A stretch of DNA of 64,000 nucleotides. Source: a virus. Where the stretch lies: positions 1-64,000 of the IMG/VR virus record IMGVR_UViG_3300021142_000014. One strand, written 5' to 3'. The notes beneath the pieces are model-generated. The model had not been told where the DNA came from. It worked only from the letters and a program-made list of their open reading frames with translations, and ran no database searches. A program made the position numbers and the translations under genes. Positions 964 through 51,841 of this stretch are shown here, piece by piece; position 1 is the first letter of the stretch, and each line of letters begins with the position of its first letter.

Positions 964-1003
964 TATTCGTCTTTCAAATCTTTTAATGAGAACGTAATAT
1001 ATG

Positions 1004-1204
1004 TTATTTTAGAGTGAGAGGGTGATCCTTAGCCATGTGTTGGCCTAAGTCAATAGAAGACGTTTGTCCTTGTAGCTTTAGATCTCGATATTGACTATCG
1101 TTTAAGTTGTCAGACTTAAGGCCTTCAAAGGCAGAGCGCATGCTCTCTTGTAACTTATTACAAGTAGCACAACCCTCTATAGCGTATCTAGTGTTCCAGT
1201 TCAT
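1004..1204 (-). CDS. Small MNWNxRYA-tagged protein (start moved to 1204)
   Basis: MNWNTRYAIEGCATC; the ATG is 1 nt after the upstream gene's TAA. Confidence 0.8.
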   Translation of the reverse strand: MNWNTRYAIEGCATCNKLQESMRSAFEGLKSDNLNDSQYRDLKLQGQTSSIDLGQHMAKDHPLTLK

Positions 1205-1205
1205 A

Positions 1206-1349
1206 TTATTCGTCTTTAAGATCTTCTTCATATTGACGCATCTTCTTTGCCATTTCAGCAGTGCTTTCAAAACTTTCATCAGGAGTAAAGTCAGCATCAA
1301 TGCTTAAATTGATATTATCTTCTGAAGCGTATCGTTCATTCCAATTCAT
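1206..1349 (-). CDS. 47-aa acidic MNWNxRYA-tagged protein (start moved to 1349)
   Basis: MNWNERYASEDN...EEDLKDE; start lies just after the upstream stop at 1354. Confidence 0.75.
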   Translation of the reverse strand: MNWNERYASEDNINLSIDADFTPDESFESTAEMAKKMRQYEEDLKDE

Positions 1350-1353
1350 ATTA

Positions 1354-1887
1354 TTAAATGTCTTCCATAGCATCTTTGTATGCTTTGTACTTTTTATACA
1401 GGGTTGCTTCGTCATGGCCACAACGACGATCGTTCTCATCACATAAAGGGTGATGTTGATCATTTGCAACGTCGCAATTACAACCGGCGCAGAAGCATGG
1501 TGATTCTGTACGATCACCATATTTATCACGATATTTAAGTATTTTTGAATAATCCGCTACTCCATTAAAACAATCAGTGTAATAATCTAAATCTATATTG
1601 TTTTTAGCAGCATCTAATGCATTTTTGTGAGAATAGTCGTAAAAATGCCGATTAATAATATAATTTTGAAGACGTACACCATTAGATTTAACTTCATGTG
1701 CTTGACCCTTAGTAACCAATGGAAGGTGGTCGCTGTAACGATTCATTAATGAATACTCATTCGTGTAATCATAAGGTTCGTTTTCTTCCAAACGTTTCTT
1801 CTTAAAACTATCTTGCACGTAATTAATAAAATCATTGTCATTTGATGATTTTTTTGCATCTAATGCATATCTAAGATTCCAATTCAT
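1354..1887 (-). CDS. MNWNxRYA-tagged protein with C-terminal Cys/His cluster
   Basis: MNWNLRYAL...CFCAGCNC...DQHHPLCDENDRRCGH. Confidence 0.85.
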   Translation of the reverse strand: MNWNLRYALDAKKSSNDNDFINYVQDSFKKKRLEENEPYDYTNEYSLMNRYSDHLPLVTKGQAHEVKSNGVRLQNYIINRHFYDYSHKNALDAAKNNIDLDYYTDCFNGVADYSKILKYRDKYGDRTESPCFCAGCNCDVANDQHHPLCDENDRRCGHDEATLYKKYKAYKDAMEDI

Positions 1888-1888
1888 A

Positions 1889-2269
1889 CTATTCCTCGTC
1901 GATCATACCACTTATAGAATAAGCGTGTTGTGTTAAATTATTTGCATGCTTTATTAAACTGTCTTTCATAGCATCGTTGTATTCTTTGTACTTTTCATTA
2001 GGAGTCTCTATGTGGTTCCATACATGGTTCCAGGCTTCTGCTGCTAAAGCATGAGCATTTGCGGCAAGCTTGTGGATTGTATGATCCGTATCACCCTCAT
2101 AATGTTGGTCAGCAGATTCAGTATGGTAAGCAGTCATACCATTATGGTAATTTTCATACTCTTCAGCTTTTTCTTTATTATACTTATCAGCATCGCTATT
2201 GAACTTTTCATCAAAGTTAGAAAAGTCATATAATGAATTATCATTAGCGTAACGTTGGTTCCAGTTCAT
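1889..2269 (-). CDS. MNWNxRYA-tagged His/Ala-rich helical protein
   Basis: MNWNQRYAN...HKLAANAHALAAEAW; tightly packed with neighbours. Confidence 0.85.
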   Translation of the reverse strand: MNWNQRYANDNSLYDFSNFDEKFNSDADKYNKEKAEEYENYHNGMTAYHTESADQHYEGDTDHTIHKLAANAHALAAEAWNHVWNHIETPNEKYKEYNDAMKDSLIKHANNLTQHAYSISGMIDEE

Positions 2270-2270
2270 A

Positions 2271-2552
2271 CTACTGGTTCCTTTGCTTATGTATTTGACC
2301 TGTCATTGCGCCATACCAGATGGGTTGACTACCGAAAGGTATTGCTTGAGGGGTTGCTGTCTCTACAGGGGCTTGTGGGGCCTCTACAATGGCTTCTACG
2401 GCTACAGGCTCTTCTACCAAAGCTTCTTCGACAGCTTCCGCAATAACTACTTCTTCTACTTTGTCTTCTTCTTGTAGAACATCACTGAGGCCTTGTAGAG
2501 CTTCCTCTATAGGTGTTTCTATCTTTGTTGTTTTAGGTTTTGCTGTAGTCAT
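2271..2552 (-). CDS. Acidic low-complexity hypothetical protein
   Basis: E/V/A-rich ORF abutting the downstream gene. Confidence 0.7.
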   Translation of the reverse strand: MTTAKPKTTKIETPIEEALQGLSDVLQEEDKVEEVVIAEAVEEALVEEPVAVEAIVEAPQAPVETATPQAIPFGSQPIWYGAMTGQIHKQRNQ

Positions 2553-2595
2553 TATTCAGGAATTTTCTTAATTATTCATTACATTGCAATAATGA

Positions 2596-3375
2596 TTATC
2601 CATTAATGATCTTGTCTTGGCATTCTCTGCTACAAACATTTGCTTCAGGGTGACCAGTGTCTTTACCACAATTAAGGCAAGCACCAGCGTTGGTTCTCAT
2701 AGAAGTACCTTCACCTCGAAGAGTTTTGCATTCTGTGCAAGATGAATGGTGTTTGATCATATGCCTGTTGGTTGCTTTGATAACTTGCATAACATTGTCA
2801 TGATCGGCATTATCGGCAAAGAGTTGTTCATTCAAAGCCATTCTGGAATTAATGATGCCACGAGCAACACGGCATATAGAGTCTTCAGCAGAAGCTGTCT
2901 TAGAAAGACTTGCTACTCTTTCGCTCAATATATGTTTTTCAGCACAAGGCCGACATGCTACAGGAACATCGAGAGGAAGTTTATCAACACCAGCGTTTTC
3001 AATTCGAGTCCACCTGCCAGTATCAGGGTGTTTTACAAAACCAGAACTCATTAGATTAGTTTTTAATTTACCAAATTCATCATATTGTTTTCCCATTTCT
3101 TGATGATGTTGTACAGCTCGAGCGGTGCCTACGCTAGTCCCACAAGTATCACATTTACCTGTCCTTTTAAGTCGATCAGGTATTGCAGCAGAACCTGGAG
3201 TAGTTTTATTTTGAAAAACAAGTTCTCCATTTTCATTTTCATTTACTGAGGTTCTGGTTATGTCTGGGGATGCTGGTTGACCTGGTATTCTATCAAGAGG
3301 CGCAGCAATCTTTTGACCTAACGAGTTTGCATATTTAACATCCCATGGGGATAGTGGGTCGGGAATAAATGGCAT
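2596..3375 (-). CDS. Hypothetical protein with several CxxC motifs, WDVKYA and KTAS
   Basis: 259-aa ORF with GAAAGGA SD upstream. Confidence 0.8.
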   Translation of the reverse strand: MPFIPDPLSPWDVKYANSLGQKIAAPLDRIPGQPASPDITRTSVNENENGELVFQNKTTPGSAAIPDRLKRTGKCDTCGTSVGTARAVQHHQEMGKQYDEFGKLKTNLMSSGFVKHPDTGRWTRIENAGVDKLPLDVPVACRPCAEKHILSERVASLSKTASAEDSICRVARGIINSRMALNEQLFADNADHDNVMQVIKATNRHMIKHHSSCTECKTLRGEGTSMRTNAGACLNCGKDTGHPEANVCSRECQDKIING

Positions 3376-3674
3376 GACGAATCCTTTCGTATCTATATCC
3401 TATAGTAATTAGCACCCTATTTTACAGTATCTCTGAAAATGCCCCAAGGGGTCCCCGCCATTTTTTTTAAGTGACCTCTTTTCCTATAATAGGGGTCCCA
3501 TTTTCTATAAGTACCCCCCCTATGAAAACCCTTTGTTTCTGGAAAAGGCAAAAACTTGTCATCCTATTTTACGCCTTACATTGAGAGATGAAGTACAAAG
3601 GCAAAAAGGTTATGAACTTCTTTGGACATCATCATTCGGTAATCCTAAGTAAGAAATGAAAGGAGGTGAGTAAC

Positions 3675-3809
3675 ATGCGTATTCCAAAGTTTAACTCTGG
3701 AAGCAAGCCAACGTATCGTGGTCAGTTTAGTACACCTGCATGGCCTGCAGCTAGTGGCAGAACAACGTCATCAGGTAGACGTAATTCACCACGACGTAGA
3801 ACTAAGTAA
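3675..3809 (+). CDS. 44-aa basic Arg/Ser-rich peptide
   Basis: Strong SD (AAAGGAGGTGA); MRIPKFNSG...RRNSPRRRTK; below the ORF-track cutoff. Confidence 0.6.
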   Translation: MRIPKFNSGSKPTYRGQFSTPAWPAASGRTTSSGRRNSPRRRTK

Positions 3810-3862
3810 ACCTCAATGCAGGAGGTCCCATATCAACTCAGAAATGGTTTGGTGTGGTGCCT

Positions 3863-3877
3863 CATGTCGTGAGACAT
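3863..3877 (+). repeat. Repeated GNRA hairpin CATGTCGTGAGACAT (identical at 4289-4303 and 5611-5625; variants at 14318-14331 and 15186-15200)
   Basis: Exact 15-mer three times, always just upstream of an A-rich leader and SD. Confidence 0.85.
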
Positions 3878-3909
3878 CAATTAAACAAGTAAGAAAGTAA
3901 GTGATAAAT

Positions 3910-4071
3910 ATGAGTGTTAACTCGTACACAAGTAATGACTGGAGTAAGTTCATAGATGAGTTTGAATCTGGTGAGCTTGCCCCTCCAATGGTTGAAGTAA
4001 TTGAACCTGAGGAACCACGTCGCACACACTGTTGTTCTGACTGCGGTTGTGAGTGTGGTGGTTGTAACTAA
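3910..4071 (+). CDS. 53-aa peptide with acidic N-terminus and Cys-rich tail (CCSDCGCECGGCN)
   Basis: Manual translation; preceded by the GTAAGAAAG leader typical of this region. Confidence 0.65.
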   Translation: MSVNSYTSNDWSKFIDEFESGELAPPMVEVIEPEEPRRTHCCSDCGCECGGCN

Positions 4072-4089
4072 GTAAGAAAGGAGGTAATC

Positions 4090-4251
4090 ATGGCATCAAG
4101 CAAAAGCTTGATCCAATGTGACACATGCGGACGATGGGACGAAGTTTACGACCAAGACTTAATGTCAATCTTTAAGACGCTTGGCGGTTGTAAATTCGTC
4201 TGTCACCTTTGTGCAATTGAAGCAATGCAACAAAAAGAAGTAAGCCTCTAG
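4090..4251 (+). CDS. 53-aa zinc-ribbon protein
   Basis: SD AGAAAGGAGG; CDTC...CHLC. Confidence 0.75.
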   Translation: MASSKSLIQCDTCGRWDEVYDQDLMSIFKTLGGCKFVCHLCAIEAMQQKEVSL

Positions 4252-4335
4252 ACAGGCTGGCATCACCGGGGTAACTCGGTGGTGGCTACATGTCGTGAGA
4301 CATCTGCAGTAAATAACAAGTAAGAAAGGAAATAT

Positions 4336-4617
4336 ATGTCAGAGACAGTTCTAGCCTGGTCAACAATGATCTGGTCAGATACACCTGAGCCTCAACCCAG
4401 AGAGTTGTATGGAGGTTCACTTCTGTTGGCTGTACAAAACAGATGGAATCGCTCAAGCGACGATCCAGATAGGAAGTTTATACCTGGTCTGCTCGGGGCA
4501 TCACCTACTGTCACTGTTATCAGTGGCACAGGTAATATCGAGGTCGTTATAGCCAACGATCTTAACGAAGTCAGGGTAGAGAATATCAAGCCTAACTTAT
4601 TAGTCATTACAGACTAA
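4336..4617 (+). CDS. Hypothetical protein
   Basis: SD AAGAAAGGA; 93 aa. Confidence 0.7.
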   Translation: MSETVLAWSTMIWSDTPEPQPRELYGGSLLLAVQNRWNRSSDDPDRKFIPGLLGASPTVTVISGTGNIEVVIANDLNEVRVENIKPNLLVITD

Positions 4618-4624
4618 TGGGTTA

Positions 4625-4687
4625 CCCCACCTGGCTATCCACCAGGCTCCTGTTCAATGGAGAGTCAGAGTCAAATCTGACTTGGGG
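4625..4687 (+). ncRNA. tRNA-like cloverleaf (non-canonical)
   Basis: CCCCA/TGGGG closing stem encloses CCTGG/CCAGG, CTCC/GGAG and AGTCAG/CTGACT hairpins; the last has a T-loop-like GTCAAAT; no CCA. Confidence 0.45.
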
Positions 4688-4778
4688 ACGTTACCACTGC
4701 AGGGATGCAGGAGTAACAGCAGTAACCGGTAACTCAGCGGATCTGAGGAAATAAATAAATAAGAGAAGGAAGACTATT

Positions 4779-5510
4779 ATGTCAGAATTCAACGTAACCA
4801 CAACCAACGAGATCATGTCGGAGGAGGATGTAGCTAAACTGTTACACGACTCTTTCTACGTATTCTCGGAGGAGACTGTAGCAGAACACGAGATGCTCGT
4901 GGATGCTGTGCAGATCTTGACTCTAGCAGGTAAAATGCTAGACCAAGTCGCTGCAGCTGCAATTAGTCAGGCTAAGTCAGAGAACAACTACGGCGTAGGT
5001 CGTGTGTTCGATGTCTTTACCACTGACCAATTGAAGTACGGTCGTCACGTAGTTGCAGCTGTTATGGCTCTTACGCCAACAACAGTTGTGACCCGTGCTA
5101 TGTCATACGCTGGTAAGTACAGTAAGTCCCGTCCGCAGATCATGATCAACTCTGAGATCAAGATTGACGGTAGAGGACATAAGTACTACGAGTACATGCG
5201 TAGCTACCACTACGTGACATCCAATGTTCACAGTCCATGGGATGCGTTTAACACCAAGAACGGTGCCAAGCGTACACACAAGTTGTTCATTGCCGGTGAC
5301 CAGAAGTTCTACACCGTCAAGAACGGCAAGCGTGTTGCGGTTGCACTCGGTGCTCCAAGTGAATATGACAAGGAGATCAATGCAGCCCACTCCAGTGGTG
5401 CAGTTACACAATACACACAGGCTCTTAATGAGATCCCACAGGACCTTATCGAGACGCTGAGTGAGAATCAACAGCAGTTGTTCTTGGAAGCATTCAAGAG
5501 CATTAAGTAA
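4779..5510 (+). CDS. Hypothetical protein
   Basis: 243-aa ORF with SD. Confidence 0.85.
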   Translation: MSEFNVTTTNEIMSEEDVAKLLHDSFYVFSEETVAEHEMLVDAVQILTLAGKMLDQVAAAAISQAKSENNYGVGRVFDVFTTDQLKYGRHVVAAVMALTPTTVVTRAMSYAGKYSKSRPQIMINSEIKIDGRGHKYYEYMRSYHYVTSNVHSPWDAFNTKNGAKRTHKLFIAGDQKFYTVKNGKRVAVALGAPSEYDKEINAAHSSGAVTQYTQALNEIPQDLIETLSENQQQLFLEAFKSIK

Positions 5511-5521
5511 TACCCGCAGTA

Positions 5522-5551
5522 AGACCTGAGGTATGTCTATAAACTGCCTCA
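5522..5551 (+). ncRNA. H-type pseudoknot motif (repeated family)
   Basis: AGAC/GTCT stem; loop TGAGGTA pairs with TGCCTCA after an ATAAAC linker. Confidence 0.65.
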
Positions 5552-5608
5552 CCACCCCCCCTGGGGGATACCTTATAGGTGTATTAGGTTCGATTCCTAA
5601 TGGGGTGG
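5552..5608 (+). ncRNA. tRNA-like element (acceptor stem + T-arm)
   Basis: CCACCCC/GGGGTGG stem stacked on ATTAGG-TTCGATT-CCTAAT. Confidence 0.65.
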
Positions 5609-7980: not shown

Positions 7981-8742
7981 ATGAGTGAAGCAACCTATGA
8001 AGGTATTCCAGTTCCACAGTGCTACAAGGACTTGGAGGATGTGCTCAATGCCGGTGTAGACCGTGTCATTTTGTACGGCCCTCCAGGTACTGGTAAGACT
8101 TACTCTGGCCTCAACTTTGGTATTAACCAAGCTGGTGCCGAGCGTCTTATCTGTTCTGAGGATATGACGAATGCCGATGTCTCAGGTTCTGTCATGCCTA
8201 ATGAGCATGGTGGGTTCACATTCGTTCCAGGTGCTGCATTACGTTCCTGGATCGGTGACGGTACTATCGGTGCTCGTCTCGTTGTTGACGAGATTGACAA
8301 AGCCGGTGGTGACGTACAATCCACTTTGTTGGCATTCCTTGACAGTGTTGAGTCTTCATCGTTCAAGCACCCTTACACTGGAGAGACTTATACTCCAAAT
8401 CCAGGGTTCTCAGCGATCATGACTACTAACCTAGAAGACATGGATGAGTTGCCAGTCGCACTCAAGGACCGTTTTCCGATTGCAATCAAGATTGATGCTG
8501 CACATCCTGCTGCATTGATTGCTGCATTGCCACCGGAACTACGTCAACTTGCAGCTACAATCGTAGCTGGTAAGCCAGGTCAACGTGCTTCTCTACGCGC
8601 ATTCAAAGCGTTTGAGCAGCTTCGTAGTACTCCTGACTTCGGTGTAGAACGTGCAGCTCGCATGGTATTCGGTCGTATGGCTGATCCTATCATTGATGCT
8701 CTCAAGATTGGCACTCTAACTCCTGAGTATTCTCTATCATGA
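7981..8742 (+). CDS. MoxR/CbbQ-type AAA+ ATPase
   Basis: Walker A GPPGTGKT, Walker B VVDEIDK, TTN sensor, ALKDRF arginine finger. Confidence 0.9.
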   Translation: MSEATYEGIPVPQCYKDLEDVLNAGVDRVILYGPPGTGKTYSGLNFGINQAGAERLICSEDMTNADVSGSVMPNEHGGFTFVPGAALRSWIGDGTIGARLVVDEIDKAGGDVQSTLLAFLDSVESSSFKHPYTGETYTPNPGFSAIMTTNLEDMDELPVALKDRFPIAIKIDAAHPAALIAALPPELRQLAATIVAGKPGQRASLRAFKAFEQLRSTPDFGVERAARMVFGRMADPIIDALKIGTLTPEYSLS

Positions 8743-10220
8743 GTTATGACGATGACATTCTCAAGGATGAGGTAATGCCCCTACCAGGGGTTATTACCTC
8801 ATTCCGAGAGGATATTCAACAGCCAATCCAATGGGATGTTGTTCCAACTTCTGGTGAGCTAGGCGTAGGCGTAGACTTTAGTGCTGGTGTAATATCTGTT
8901 CCTCTTTCAGGTGACAGTTATTCTCAGCGTTTACAACTACAACAGCTTATCAAAACTCGTGTTTCTCCAGTTGATGACAAAGTATTATCTGAGTTAGCTA
9001 GGCAATACAAGACTAGTGGTGTTACGCTAGATGTTCTTCGTGTTTCCGAGCAAGCTCGCATCAACAAAATAACAGCTCAGTTTGCTGCTGCTAAGGGGAT
9101 AGTCACGGAGCCTGATGGTCACGAAAAGATATTGGGTAAGAGGTTGGCAACAGCCGGTGATATGCGTTCATGGGATAAAGCAGTGGAGTTCACTGCTCAG
9201 AATGCAGGTACGAAAGCTTTCGATTCATTCGCAAGTGGTATTCGTTCTGTTAATCCTGAGTGGAGTAAAGATCTGCGTAATCTCAATAAACGACTGGGTA
9301 AAACCTTCAACGAATCTGTTCAAGAACTCGGCGATACAAGACCACTTAACTTTGGTAATGATATCGTAGGTCCTAGAGGTTTACGTCACACTCTTTATGC
9401 AGCTAATGAAGTTGCTGAGTTTATGTCTGCAGGCTATAGAGCTCCTCAGAGCATTAAAGCCCTCAGAAGAGACTCAGAGGACAAACGAGCTCGTGAGTGG
9501 GGTGATACCAATGAAGATGGTAAGGTTGACTCTAATCAAACTACACTGGATACATCGGATGTACCAGATGACTTCGAATTTGCCTATGATGATGGTGAGT
9601 TTGGTAAGTTAGTCTGGGCTGAAGATCTGCCGTTGACCGTTGAGGTTAAAGGTTATATGCGCCGTAAAAAGCGTGGTATGCAGTCTGGTCGTAGAGTATC
9701 TTATCCTTCACGTCTACTTACTGACCCAGAGCGCAGAATATTTAGCCAGAAGGTTAAAGTCAAAGGTGGTATCGTTGTCGTTGACATATCAGGTTCTATG
9801 AGCTTGAGTCAAGCAGACATTGAATCCATCGTTGAAGCAGCTCCAGCTGCAGTCATTATGGCATATAGTGATTGTGGTGAGAACAGTCCCAATGCTTGGC
9901 TCCTTGCTAACCGTGGTTGGCGAGTAAGTCACGTTGACAACATTGGTGGTATGAACAATGGTGTTGACGGTACAGCATTGACATGGGCAATTCGACACAA
10001 GAAGTATGGTGAAGATATTGTCTGGGTCAGTGACGGTCAGATTACCTCAATGAATGGTGGACAACGAGATGAGTTGGCAATTCAATGTGCTAAGTTAGTC
10101 AAGAAGCACAGGATCATTATGATTCCTAGTGTTCAAGAAGCAGTCGCAATGTTTAAGAAAGGTAAGCTTATCAACAAGCCTGCCGGTCCTATTCGCGATG
10201 CTTTGCTTGGTAAACTTTAA
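8739..10220 (+). CDS. von Willebrand A (MIDAS) domain protein, partner of the AAA+ ATPase
   Basis: VVDISGSMS MIDAS and WVSDG; ATGA overlap with the AAA gene. Confidence 0.85.
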   Translation: MSYDDDILKDEVMPLPGVITSFREDIQQPIQWDVVPTSGELGVGVDFSAGVISVPLSGDSYSQRLQLQQLIKTRVSPVDDKVLSELARQYKTSGVTLDVLRVSEQARINKITAQFAAAKGIVTEPDGHEKILGKRLATAGDMRSWDKAVEFTAQNAGTKAFDSFASGIRSVNPEWSKDLRNLNKRLGKTFNESVQELGDTRPLNFGNDIVGPRGLRHTLYAANEVAEFMSAGYRAPQSIKALRRDSEDKRAREWGDTNEDGKVDSNQTTLDTSDVPDDFEFAYDDGEFGKLVWAEDLPLTVEVKGYMRRKKRGMQSGRRVSYPSRLLTDPERRIFSQKVKVKGGIVVVDISGSMSLSQADIESIVEAAPAAVIMAYSDCGENSPNAWLLANRGWRVSHVDNIGGMNNGVDGTALTWAIRHKKYGEDIVWVSDGQITSMNGGQRDELAIQCAKLVKKHRIIMIPSVQEAVAMFKKGKLINKPAGPIRDALLGKL

Positions 10221-10763: not shown

Positions 10764-11051
10764 ATGTCCAAAGAAACAAGACAAGCAATACTTGGAATGA
10801 AGAATTGCATTGCTCAAGAACAAGACATTGATCAGTTACGTGATGCAGCTTTTGGTGTTATTGAGCTGCTCACTGATGTTGATCGGTTAATTGAACAAGA
10901 AAAAGAGCAAAGTGGCAAAGTCATTCTACAACTTGTAGGTGTAATTGAAACTGCAAGTAAAGCTCTTGATCAAGCAGGTATTGAATTGTTTAATACTGAC
11001 ACAGTAAAAGAATTGGTAGATTTTGCCAATAAAGTTACTAAAGTTAATTAA
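10764..11051 (+). CDS. Hypothetical helical protein
   Basis: A-rich leader; 95 aa. Confidence 0.75.
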   Translation: MSKETRQAILGMKNCIAQEQDIDQLRDAAFGVIELLTDVDRLIEQEKEQSGKVILQLVGVIETASKALDQAGIELFNTDTVKELVDFANKVTKVN

Positions 11052-11870
11052 TCATTGACATGAATGAAATGCTCTCATAAACTCTCTAAGACTCAGGTCT
11101 GTTGAGATGGGTTATGAAGAGTGCTTTTCCTTCTTGTTGTTGCATCTTCATAGCCCTTCTGGACAGGCCAGGGGGCTTTATTGATCTGTGAAAAAGCCAG
11201 CTATGTCAACCCGCCAGATTGGATGTTATATTAATCCAGAGTGCCTAGTTGCAAGTCTTGCATTTCACAAACCCAGCCTAAAGGGGAAGCTTAGGTAGGA
11301 AGTAACATCCTTAACAACACACTATGAGGTCTAGGCCACTGACCCAAAAAACGTGGCAATCCCATATAACTTTTATCGGTTATATGGGACCTAGTCACAT
11401 TATGGTACAAGACTTAAACGGTTCCATACGCTAGCATCGTACTGCAACCCACTATAAAGGGAAGTTTATAGAAGGTTTACCATTTCACCTAAATAATATA
11501 ATAAAGGGGCACATATGCCTAAAATATGTTGTGGGCTTACTACAATAAACGCGCCATACTTCTTGGTTGGTAGGTTAGGAACCAAGGTCGCTTTGAGCAT
11601 AGCGTCGGGAATAAAGCTCAACCTATACATGCTGTCATGGTGTGTATAGGTGCCAAGTCCTGAACAAGACTATACCACAGTTGCAGGTGTAAAAACTGTT
11701 CAAAACTCAGCATGTGGAGAAGCACATGTAGGTTAAATCACCTTAAGTATAACCTGTTGGTGGTATAGGTGAGCCAACTACCTTAGAGTGTGAAGGCAAC
11801 TCTGGTGTTGTGAGTGGATCCTTATCGAACTCTCCGTCCTGGGTATGACGTTAAAGTGCCCACTTAAATA
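11052..11870 (+). ncRNA. Candidate ~820-nt large structured ncRNA (or a cluster of small structured RNAs)
   Basis: No ORF of 60 aa or more; dense hairpins, five or more pseudoknots, long-range helices such as 11236-11246 with 11794-11805. Confidence 0.65.
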
Positions 11871-11887
11871 ATAAACAAGGAGTAAGT

Positions 11888-12220
11888 ATGGATGAGAAAG
11901 AATTCAATTCTTTACTCGATGAAGAAGTGTCTACACGTTTACATTACGGAGATTCTGTAGGTAAACTAAAGACAATATTCATGGATATGGCAACACCAAT
12001 CTTATGGCTGAAAGGTGCCAGTGAAAACTGGGAAGACCTTGATGAGGATTCTATGGTTGTTGTTGGTAAATCATTAGAAGAATTGGTTGAATATGTCCGT
12101 GCAACTATGAAAGAACTATTGGATGTAATTCAAGATAGTGCTACATATTTGTATGGCGAACCATTCAATGAAGAATCATTCCATGGAGCAAACTGTCAAT
12201 GTGACAGAGATCATAAGTAA
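11888..12220 (+). CDS. Hypothetical protein, probable paralog of 10356-10733
   Basis: SD AAGGAG; C-terminal H/C cluster. Confidence 0.8.
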   Translation: MDEKEFNSLLDEEVSTRLHYGDSVGKLKTIFMDMATPILWLKGASENWEDLDEDSMVVVGKSLEELVEYVRATMKELLDVIQDSATYLYGEPFNEESFHGANCQCDRDHK

Positions 12221-12474: not shown

Positions 12475-12870
12475 ATGTCTCGAATGGTAACATGGCGTCG
12501 GGATAGAGAAGAAGCAATGTGGAAAGCAAAGACTGCAGGATATTCAATTAAGTTTGATTTAAAACTTGAATTATCTGCAGGTATTCAAAGTGCATTGATA
12601 AATAAAAATGCAGTGCTTAAAGTAATGCGTCCTATCCCAGGCACCAATAAGAAAGAATTGTTATTTAGTAAAGAATTTTCGTCTAGCTGGATAGCTAAAG
12701 ATACTATAGATTCTTTACTATTTTTATGCTATAGTCTTTTTATAGTTTTAGGAGAAAATGAACAAGCTGAACAGTGGTTTATCGATACTCTAAGTAATTT
12801 TAAAGGTGTGGATTACCCTGAACAACCAGATCCATCAGATTATACTAAAATGTTTAAATATTATAAGTAA
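12475..12870 (+). CDS. Hypothetical protein
   Basis: SD AGGAG; 131 aa. Confidence 0.75.
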   Translation: MSRMVTWRRDREEAMWKAKTAGYSIKFDLKLELSAGIQSALINKNAVLKVMRPIPGTNKKELLFSKEFSSSWIAKDTIDSLLFLCYSLFIVLGENEQAEQWFIDTLSNFKGVDYPEQPDPSDYTKMFKYYK

Positions 12871-12876
12871 TAAATA

Positions 12877-12936
12877 ATCGATAACCCCGTGAGGGGTCTG
12901 TATGGGATGACCTCCATGCACTGATGAGATAGGTCA
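12877..12936 (+). ncRNA. Type II hammerhead ribozyme with loop pseudoknot; GAUAA core variant; predicted cut after C12898
   Basis: ATC-GATAA-CCCC(GTGA)GGGG-TC / TGTATGG..CCATGCA-CTGATGA-GAT; loop TGACCT pairs with 3' AGGTCA. Confidence 0.85.
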
Positions 12937-12952
12937 AATTAAGAAGGATAAT

Positions 12953-13348
12953 ATGGATAATGAAATGTCAGATGAACTGAAGTTGCAACTCATTAAAACT
13001 CAGTTTAATAACTTGACAATGTGTATTAAAATGCAAATCACAATTCAGACTACTCTTGAAGCATACCGACAGTATGTTGCTGGTGAGTTGCCAGAAGTGT
13101 TCAACGATGTTGTTGAAACTGAAGCATTTAAAGACACTTTTAATCAAGCTGTTCAAGCTAGTACTGAAGTTCTTCAGAATCTTATTACGTTTGCAGATAA
13201 CGTAGGTTCTGTCTTTGGAATTGATTTCAGAGCACAATTGCCTAAAAACAATGATGAACTTAATCAGATGACTAAAGATTTACATGATGAATTGCAACAA
13301 CAAAGAGAATCCGATCAAGAATTTGATTGGGAATTTAAAGACAAATAA
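12953..13348 (+). CDS. Hypothetical protein
   Basis: SD AAGAAGGA; 131 aa. Confidence 0.8.
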   Translation: MDNEMSDELKLQLIKTQFNNLTMCIKMQITIQTTLEAYRQYVAGELPEVFNDVVETEAFKDTFNQAVQASTEVLQNLITFADNVGSVFGIDFRAQLPKNNDELNQMTKDLHDELQQQRESDQEFDWEFKDK

Positions 13349-51680: not shown

Positions 51681-51764
51681 TGGTGGATGGAGAGGGATTC
51701 GAACCCCCGAACAATAAAGAACTGGTTTACAGCCAGCCGCGTTTGGCCACTTCGCTACCCATCC
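51681..51764 (-). tRNA. tRNA-Tyr(GUA)
   Basis: Cloverleaf, CT-GTA-AA loop, long variable region, GTTCGAATCC, encoded CCA. Confidence 0.93.
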
Positions 51765-51765
51765 G

Positions 51766-51841
51766 TGGTGCCCCAGGCAAGACTTGAACTTGCAACCTGC
51801 GGGTTAGAACTCCGATGCTCTATCCGTTGAGCTACTAGGGC
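51766..51841 (-). tRNA. tRNA-Arg(UCU) with irregular anticodon arm
   Basis: 76-nt cloverleaf, Arg-type D-loop (GGATA), loop GT-TCT-AA, encoded CCA. Confidence 0.8.

Follow-up and report, generated by a model that had tools for sequence, protein, structure and literature searches.

The stretch of DNA analysed here (hereafter the window) covers the initial 64 kb of IMGVR_UViG_3300021142_000014, a 99.7-kb viral record in IMG/VR with an estimated completeness of 69%. Its DnaE-type polymerase is 35% identical to the counterparts in Rhodococcus phage E3 and cluster C mycobacteriophages, so the record belongs to a large, actinophage-like phage; a DnaE search placed all of its close relatives in bog-lake metagenomes. 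Within a block of + strand genes lies a stretch of 836 bases (11052-11887), bounded upstream by a gene of 95 amino acids (aa) at 10764-11051 and downstream by a 110-aa gene at 11888-12220. Both flanking genes are on the + strand, each has its own stop codon, Shine-Dalgarno (SD) sequence and start codon, and they belong to different protein families. We find that 11052-11887 is a genuine, conserved, structured noncoding RNA of a new family in a freshwater phage clade, read from the + strand, and that it is organized as 'beads on a string', a series of small independent folds gained and lost between relatives.

Neither strand of 11052-11887 holds an open reading frame (ORF) longer than 54 aa. 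This agrees with an annotation made earlier from the letters alone (the original prediction), which had proposed an ORF-free, ~820-nt multi-pseudoknot RNA at this place and whose quoted sequences all lie where it put them. Conserved small peptides are a very unlikely account of the stretch as well: no small ORF keeps its extent across the groups of relatives, and indels preserve pairing, not reading frame. Where small ORFs looked conserved, this was DNA identity among near-identical relatives and nothing more, and we set them aside. The + strand folds with a minimum free energy (MFE) of -260.8 kcal/mol, at z = -4.5 relative to dinucleotide shuffles, compared with z = -2.5 for the - strand. Supported helices contain 107 G-U cells versus 22 A-C cells in the alignments, an excess from which we conclude that the RNA is read from the + strand.

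Searches of RNA catalogues returned no known family for the region. Against Rfam 15, the whole window gave two tRNAs at 51684-51841 and nothing else at gathering scores, and the region 10900-12000, scanned at E values up to 10, gave chance microRNA-type matches of 15-20 bits on one hairpin (M1, below) alone. GOLLD, ROOL, HEARO, OLE, raiA, RNase P, 6S, riboswitches and ribozymes were among the families thus covered. ARAGORN found a tRNA-Tyr and a tRNA-Arg far from the region and no transfer-messenger RNA (tmRNA). No Rfam model of a group I or group II intron matched, and the flanks are separate genes rather than one split gene. These results bear out the earlier statement that tmRNA, RNase P and intron hallmarks are missing, and the suggestion of a new class is supported at the level of a new family, given that no Rfam 15 model matched.

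Homologous regions were reached by several routes. Starting from the DnaE protein we collected 26 related contigs, in 8 of which a DNA search found the region, patchily. A 20-nt query from the apical loop of M1 retrieved more copies from IMG/VR and JGI metagenomes for a total of 12 distinct regions; a covariance model of a repeated hairpin, the G module, added 4 further regions without M1, and a pattern scan 5 more loci. About 21 homologous regions were found, with lengths of 441-1,374 nt, and at least 16 were analysed. Searches with the small flanking proteins and with a 493-aa protein encoded further upstream found nothing, and blastn of the region against GenBank phages gave no homolog. The order of modules is conserved across contigs whose DnaE is 76-86% identical to that of the window. 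At the same time, the block corresponding to window 11473-11704 is missing in four relatives (L051, L068, L052 and L055), and in distant relatives (DnaE 62% identical) the 493-aa gene is kept and the RNA is absent. The RNA precedes gene family D1 in the window and follows D1 in two relatives (L065 and L075), which speaks against its being a leader tied to a single gene. The relatives carry compensatory changes in local elements, the kind of covariation that the original prediction had proposed looking for.

The G module is a 7-bp hairpin with a GGGAAG loop and CYCA and AGG flanks, present in 2-7 copies per RNA. Among 27 distinct copies, 97.9% of cells were paired and 7 of 9 pairs had exchanged both bases, with 56 cells of this kind. 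The stems vary freely, in contrast to the near-invariant loop and flanks. The window holds three copies. In module 1 (11272-11311), CCCA precedes a stem of 11276-11281 with 11291-11296 around a GGGGAAG loop, followed by an AGGA/UCCU hairpin (11297-11300 with 11308-11311); the stem is 99% and the AGGA/UCCU hairpin 95% paired. Module 2 (11448-11490) consists of CCCA, a stem of 11452-11458 with 11465-11471, a GGGAAG loop and an AGGU/ACCU hairpin (11473-11476 with 11487-11490). Every cell of its stem is paired, 5 of the 7 pairs having exchanged both bases, and the module is matched by the G covariance model (R1). Module 3 (11706-11755) has CUCA, a stem of 11710-11716 with 11723-11729, a GAGAAG loop and an AGGUUA/UAACCU hairpin (11730-11735 with 11750-11755) that becomes AGGUC/GACCU in relatives; its stem is likewise 100% paired in 11 sequences, and both bases have been exchanged in 5 of its 7 pairs. 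Two of these hairpins (11276-11296 and 11452-11471) had been noticed earlier as a related pair with AGGG(G)AAG loops and prove to be real and covarying, and the third, at 11710-11729, had been missed.

The G module is also specific to this RNA. Each of 27 contigs was matched by model R1 in this region and nowhere else, the matches in the 99.7-kb genome being those at 11269, 11445 and 11703, and a pattern scan of IMG/VR found the module in this phage clade only. A second recurrent element, the pseudoknot PK-Y described next, likewise matches its search pattern on the window + strand in this region only. Because the G model and, on the window + strand, the PK-Y pattern are both confined to this region, we regard the region as a coherent unit rather than generic punctuation. 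The GGAGGU that follows G hairpins was considered as an SD-like decoy and rejected, its AGG being paired into the next hairpin.

Five pseudoknots had been proposed for the stretch; five are present in the window, of which four, all of the H type, covary in relatives and the fifth is not conserved. PK1 (11328-11357) combines stem 1 (S1) GGUC/GACC, stem 2 (S2) GCCAC/GUGGC and loop 3 CAAAAAAC; 89% of S1 cells are paired, with both bases exchanged in 3 of the 4 pairs, and the figures for S2 are 85% and 4 of 5. PK2 (11393-11427) has S1 AGUC/GACU, S2 AUGGUAC with GUUCCAU and loop 3 UAAAC. It is limited to Group 1 and L074, its S1 is 96% paired (6 sequences), and A-U to G-C exchanges in S2 can be read directly from the alignment. 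PK-Y1 (11589-11620; S1 CGCU/AGCG, loop UUGAGCAU, S2 UGAGC/GCUCA) and PK-Y3 (11835-11862; CGUC, CUGGGUAU, GACG, UUAAAGU, GCCCA) are members of a family that is 96.1% paired over 20 aligned copies (alignment A4). In this family the 4-bp S1 is 97.5% paired and all 4 pairs have changed on both sides, while S2, UGRGY with GCYCA, is 95% paired, with G-C replaced by A-U in 8 of 20 copies and U-G by C-G in 8. PK-Y3 itself is 94% (S1) and 93% (S2) paired in 12 sequences. The fifth pseudoknot, PK-Y2 (11656-11702), is a putative variant with S1 AGUC/GACU, loop CUGAACAA, S2 UGAAC/GUUCA and a long loop 3, seen in the window sequence only; the region could not be aligned in relatives. A third helix enclosing PK-Y, suggested by some copies, was also tried and is not general (21%, versus 11% in controls).

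Several pseudoknots are followed closely by a hairpin. H1 (11360-11389), an 11-bp hairpin 2 nt 3' of PK1, is 92% paired with 8 of 11 pairs changed on both sides, and H2 (11622-11650), a long hairpin 1 nt 3' of PK-Y1, is 96% paired with 4 of 9; both had been picked out as strong hairpins, and their covariation substantiates this. Their loops (CUGUCAU and similar) were considered as mimics of an anticodon loop and discarded, since these 7-nt, C-G-closed loops keep neither U33 nor purine 37. Further local elements are a small ACAUAU/AUAUGU hairpin with loop GCCUAAA at 11511-11529, read from the alignment without a formal count, whose equivalent in relatives is GCUAC/GUAGC with loop UGCCUCAAU, and the X hairpin at 11561-11587 (UCUUGGUU with AACCAAGG), which is 100% paired in 7 sequences and has exchanged both bases in 2 of its 8 pairs. 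A 3' block (11756-11832) comprises three hairpins: GUUGG/CCAAC at 11756-11778 (89% paired), UUAGAGU/ACUCUGG at 11783-11805 and GAGU/ACUC at 11812-11832. After PK-Y3 comes the A-rich leader of the next gene (11863-11890), with the Shine-Dalgarno sequence AAGGAG at 11877-11882 and the ATG at 11888; leader, SD and ATG are kept in all 12 aligned relatives.

At the 5' end stands the long hairpin M1 (11096-11169), pairing 11096-11124 with 11142-11169, which the original prediction had also recognized and which covariation confirms. In 12 aligned sequences (alignment A3), 93.8% of its cells are paired, 10 of 27 pairs have changed on both sides, and none of 500 shuffles reached its score. One-nucleotide indels on either side of the loop leave the pairing intact and would shift a reading frame. 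The apical loop UUUUCCUUCUUGUUGUU (11125-11141) is a near-invariant pyrimidine tract of 17 nt whose sole change is a U-to-G in L053. Pyrimidine tracts such as CUGCCUCCUUUCUUGUGU are found after some pseudoknots in relatives (at ~975-990 of the L078 gap, and after PK-Y copies in L053, L076 and L077). They contain CCUCCUUUCU, the 3' tail that 16S rRNA usually has, and they resemble the M1 loop; CCUCCUUUCU-like tracts are present in relatives without M1 as well.

The closest known relatives of the PK-Y units are exonuclease-resistant RNAs (xrRNAs) of the coremin type, whose Watson-Crick variant the units appear to fit. The coremin motif, GUCCGAAGACGUUAAACUAC (PMC10520033), requires a first hairpin (hp1) of 3-4 bp whose loop is YGAD or YGNNAD, then a conserved spacer, then a second hairpin (hp2), and it stalls both Xrn1 and scanning ribosomes (Dilweg et al. 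2019, PMC6546385; 2023, PMC10520033). In the Watson-Crick variant (xrRNA-WCC) a canonical stem 2 joins the loop to the end of the spacer; this variant promotes frameshifting and impeded ribosomes, with the screen carried out in E. coli (PMC10321173). According to a review, xrRNAs resist 5'-to-3' exonucleases generally, bacterial RNase J1 included (PMC8374639).

Set against coremin, PK-Y reads GUC, CUGGGUAU, GAC, GUUAAACU, GCCCA. It has GUCC and GACGUUAAACU in common with the motif, and PK-Y3 shares GUCC and GACGUUAAA with the coremin sequence given in PMC10520033; the GUC/GAC stem of hp1 and the spacer GUUAAAC(U) are common to the PK-Y modules. The 4-bp S1 corresponds to the 3-4-bp, GUC/GAC-type hp1, and in copies outside this RNA its fourth pair is canonical in 63 of 86 cases, compared with 40 expected. 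The spacer agrees with the GUUAAACUAC of coremin (8-10 nt), PK-Y3 having GUUAAAGU; the commonest spacers in the wide set of copies are UAAAACU and GUUAAACU, and that of PK-Y1 is longer and ends in AAUAAA. Stem 2 is canonical and forms between the PK-Y loop and the spacer end, as in xrRNA-WCC. A hairpin occupies the hp2 position after PK1 (H1, 2-nt gap), after PK-Y1 (H2, 1-nt gap) and after PK-Y2 (G module 3) and is absent after PK-Y3, where the A-rich leader follows instead. As in viral 3' untranslated regions (UTRs), several units stand in tandem in a noncoding stretch. The loops differ: in place of the 4-6-nt YGAD or YGNNAD, PK-Y has an 8-nt YUGRGYAW loop that starts with Y and ends with A then U/A, and one functional octaloop is on record for coremin (PMC10520033). 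The setting differs as well: PK-Y units lie between cistrons, in most cases across phages 0-10 nt beyond a stop codon, and they belong to a DNA phage of bacteria, where the enzyme met would be RNase J rather than Xrn1.

The PK-Y motif reaches far beyond this clade. A pattern of GTCCTGGGTATGAC, 6-10 nt and GCCC(A) retrieved 109 IMG/VR stretches and 20 stretches of diverse metagenome-assembled genomes (MAGs), both sets being numbered within L080-L203. The ~30-nt motif (GUCCUGGGUAUGAC, N, UAAACU, GCCCA) occurs in more than 100 unrelated phage contigs, and the MAG copies come from many phyla. It is present, unannotated, in isolates: Corynebacterium phages phi673 and phi674, Microbacterium phage Count, Moorella phage MTATph1, Geobacillus phage D6E and a Nostoc phage; copies lie at L210 1501-1527 and L211 1501-1526. 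Almost half of the distinct copies (45 of 91) begin 0-10 nt past the stop codon that ends a frame 50 or more codons long. Rfam 15 does not cover the motif, and a literature search by its sequence gave chance primer matches only. Some copies sit a few nucleotides upstream of tRNA genes. In Omnitrophota and Planctomycetes MAGs (L082, L090, L091, L097 and L098), the motif lies between a ~25-codon, Cys-containing small ORF and a gene for an Rrf2-family regulator, a protein that starts with MKLITRNTDYAL; the small ORF of L090 extends into the pseudoknot.

The surroundings of the RNA add several observations. Upstream, at 7981-10220, the window encodes an AAA_5 (MoxR-like) ATPase (PF07728, E = 4e-12) and the 493-aa protein, which matches PHROG 33218 alone; this pair is kept in relatives, including those lacking the RNA. 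No recognizable RNA-binding family was found in the flanking proteins, and an ESM Atlas search with them was also empty. One kilobase downstream of the RNA, a sub-threshold match to a type II hammerhead (RF02276, 31.1 bits versus a gathering score of 37, E = 0.006) lies at 12876-12938 on the + strand, between the genes at 12475-12870 and 12953-13348, a position that fits a processed polycistronic operon transcript. At the syntenic place in distant relatives, G015 among them, we found CxxC mini-ORFs and tRNA-like minihelices. The minihelices, which carry a T-arm (GGUGGUUCGAACCCACC; CAAGUUCGAUUCUUG), lie just upstream of Shine-Dalgarno sites in relatives (L078 gap, local 1310-1345, corresponding to G007 ~121785-121820; L216 reverse-strand gaps 625-951 and 1315-1722). 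In three contigs (L018, L019 and L020; match 1001-5565) the DnaE match spans 4,565 nt rather than the usual ~3,285 nt, from which we conclude that the polymerase gene carries a ~1.3-kb insertion, perhaps an intein, an intron or a homing-endonuclease gene.

What the RNA does is a matter of graded likelihood. We read it as a modular noncoding RNA specific to this clade, or else as a long, structured segment between cistrons, that would be transcribed together with the + strand early-type operon. In this preferred reading, at a probability of roughly 45%, its tandem exonuclease-resistant units and protein-binding hairpins would give rise to a nuclease-resistant noncoding RNA and to a downstream mRNA with a protected 5' end. 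The RNA is laid out as a 5' long hairpin followed by G modules and by units made of an H-type pseudoknot with an A-rich loop 3 and a stable hairpin directly after it, and pseudoknot plus hairpin may reproduce the anatomy of Watson-Crick coremin: hp1, a UAAAC-type spacer, a stem 2 between loop and spacer end, and hp2. RNase J is the 5'-to-3' exoribonuclease of most non-enteric bacteria; the enzyme of the host would degrade the transcript from upstream and stall at these units. If it stops at the last pseudoknot (11835-11862), the mRNA beyond would keep a 5' end that is protected and lies ~25 nt ahead of the start codon. From stalling at the inner units a stable noncoding fragment would remain, which we infer to be a discrete RNA species, displaying 2-7 G hairpins as candidates for multi-copy protein binding. 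This logic would parallel the production of subgenomic flavivirus RNA (sfRNA) and of benyvirus ncRNA3. We regard as doubtful the bolder version, in which a DNA phage makes an sfRNA-like noncoding RNA of 0.4-1.4 kb whose coremin units stall an exoribonuclease and whose GGGAAG hairpins and anti-Shine-Dalgarno-like loop might sequester a host or phage factor.

Several points weigh against exonuclease resistance as the function. Coremin-type resistance has been demonstrated for Xrn1, not RNase J, and the presence of RNase J in the host is assumed. The loops are 8 nt long and stem 2 has 5 bp, compared with 4-6 nt and 3 bp in the coremin motifs that have been assayed. In published assays Xrn1 resistance depended on hp2, an element that PK-Y3 lacks. 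The usual position of the motif, 0-10 nt past a stop codon, could equally reflect translation termination or gene insulation. The near-invariant M1 loop is left outside this explanation. Finally, genes for CsrA, RtcB, Ro60/TROVE and a CCA-adding enzyme are all absent from the contig, and protein binding by the G hairpins is only putative.

The first of the rival explanations treats the RNA as a multivalent protein sponge or scaffold, in which the G hairpins and the pyrimidine loop are presented to a phage or host RNA-binding protein, as CsrB and RsmZ do for CsrA. We consider this unlikely as the main role, and it is compatible with tandem exonuclease-resistant units as a second layer. The 2-7 G copies per RNA, a loop and flanks held near-invariant on stems free to vary, the confinement of the copies to this RNA with a number that changes between relatives, and a position independent of the neighbouring genes are all consistent with it. 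Yet no cognate protein was identified, CsrA (PF02599) being absent from the 69%-complete contig and the flanking proteins lacking a recognizable RNA-binding family; moreover, the AGG 3' of each G hairpin is paired into the next hairpin, leaving no free GGA site. The scaffold or decoy function put forward in the original prediction may exist, and the evidence points first to a chain of pseudoknot units of exonuclease-resistant type with repeated hairpins.

A cis-regulatory leader or attenuator, which we judge distinctly improbable, would use M1 and a competing terminator-like hairpin to set read-through into the genes downstream, with the M1 loop pairing to purine-rich SD regions or mimicking the 16S 3' tail to control translation. 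A promoter-like site (11055-11083; TTGACA, 17 nt, TAAACT; score 10/12) directly follows the upstream stop codon, and the TTGACA at 11055 is more likely a -35 box than the strand of a helix; a good site is nevertheless found in four relatives only (comparable ones in L058, L057 and L053) and is weak or absent elsewhere. The alternative hairpin (11153-11176), which would take over M1's 3' strand, has a U-rich tail, CUUUAUU. It covaries somewhat (in alignment A3, 82.4% of cells are paired and both bases have changed in 4 of 9 pairs), but slid controls are also high. Also in favour, the complement of the M1 loop, AACAACAAGAAGGAAAA, resembles a leader plus SD, and M1-less relatives have CCUCCUUUCU-like tracts after pseudoknots; sites complementary to the M1 loop, however, are not enriched in the window. 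M1 is altogether absent from 4 homologs, and such a switch would cover ~80 nt and not the other ~700.

A single large fold of the GOLLD or ROOL kind, in which long-range helices and tertiary contacts build a particle or multimer, is in our view quite improbable. Its size, the phage setting and the many pseudoknots would suit such a fold, the MFE fold of the window closes with the helix 11236/11794, and the CUUUUCC of the M1 loop could kiss the GGGGAAG loops. The original prediction had built its ~820-nt multi-pseudoknot architecture on five medium- and long-range helices (11055/11203, 11221/11302, 11187/11263, 11236/11794 and 11314/11805). These complementarities do exist in the sequence, but they are not conserved: only 42-70% of their cells are paired in relatives, essentially without compensation, the one possible exception being a C-to-U in L060 that restores a pair in 11236/11794. 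The stretch contains 29 perfect 7-bp complementarities versus 20.1 +/- 4.3 in shuffles, which puts any single one of them at chance level. Alignments read by eye place the 3' strand of the closing helix instead in the local hairpin at ~11783-11805, whose stem becomes AGUGGU/ACCACU in relatives and is still self-complementary. When all column pairs were scanned without bias, the top ranks went to local helices alone; the relatives revealed no conserved global core, and no Rfam family matched. With a three-fold range of lengths, whole blocks gained or lost and long-range pairs that break, the RNA is modular rather than one conserved global fold, and the architecture closed by long-range helices is not supported.

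That the stretch has no collective function, being a spacer with accumulated generic intergenic elements or hidden small peptide genes, is very improbable: PK-Y is indeed a generic intergenic motif in many phages, and CxxC mini-ORFs and tRNA-like minihelices take the syntenic place in more distant relatives, but this RNA alone has the G modules, M1, H and X, whose order is kept across contigs, and the reading frames do not survive the indels that spare the pairing.

Large structured phage RNAs are rare and mostly unexplained, and this one adds a new family of ~21 loci whose compensatory evidence is strong and whose modular grammar is clear. Through its pseudoknot units it connects phage intergenic RNA to coremin, a class of exonuclease-resistant RNA described so far in plant viruses and other RNA viruses of eukaryotes. 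Should the bolder, sfRNA-like version be true, exonuclease-resistant RNAs, until now a hallmark of such viruses, would turn out to be in wide use among bacteriophages and in some bacteria too. A functional link would mean that phage operons control mRNA decay, mark gene boundaries and make stable noncoding RNA by one simple mechanism, and the ~30-nt motif could serve as a compact RNA-stabilizing tool for bacteria with RNase J.

Among known systems, the preQ1-I riboswitch is likewise an H-type pseudoknot of ~30 nt with an A-rich third loop ending in AAACU, but RF00522 does not match, stem 2 is longer and loop 2 shorter in the phage element, and there is no link to queuosine genes. The pseudoknot string of tmRNA and the upstream pseudoknot domain of tobacco mosaic virus also place consecutive H-type pseudoknots in a row; the phage RNA differs in having no tRNA-like end or tag reading frame, and ARAGORN was negative. 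CsrB and RsmZ resemble it in their repeated hairpins, conserved GGA-containing purine loop and variable copy number, whereas the phage hairpin combines a 7-bp stem and a hexaloop, GGGAAG, with CYCA and AGG flanks that are fixed, and CsrA is not encoded in the contig. GOLLD (RF01998) and ROOL (RF03087) are, like it, large structured phage RNAs with many hairpins and pseudoknots; here, by contrast, no covariance model matched at E values up to 10, no conserved long-range core emerged, and lengths vary three-fold through gain and loss of modules. With sfRNA and the ncRNA3 of beet necrotic yellow vein virus the likeness lies only in the proposed logic. The phage RNA has no sequence or fold homology to flaviviral xrRNAs, it sits inside an operon rather than in a 3' UTR, and its product RNA is one that we infer; in both cases tandem stalling structures would yield a stable noncoding RNA that carries further protein-binding structures.

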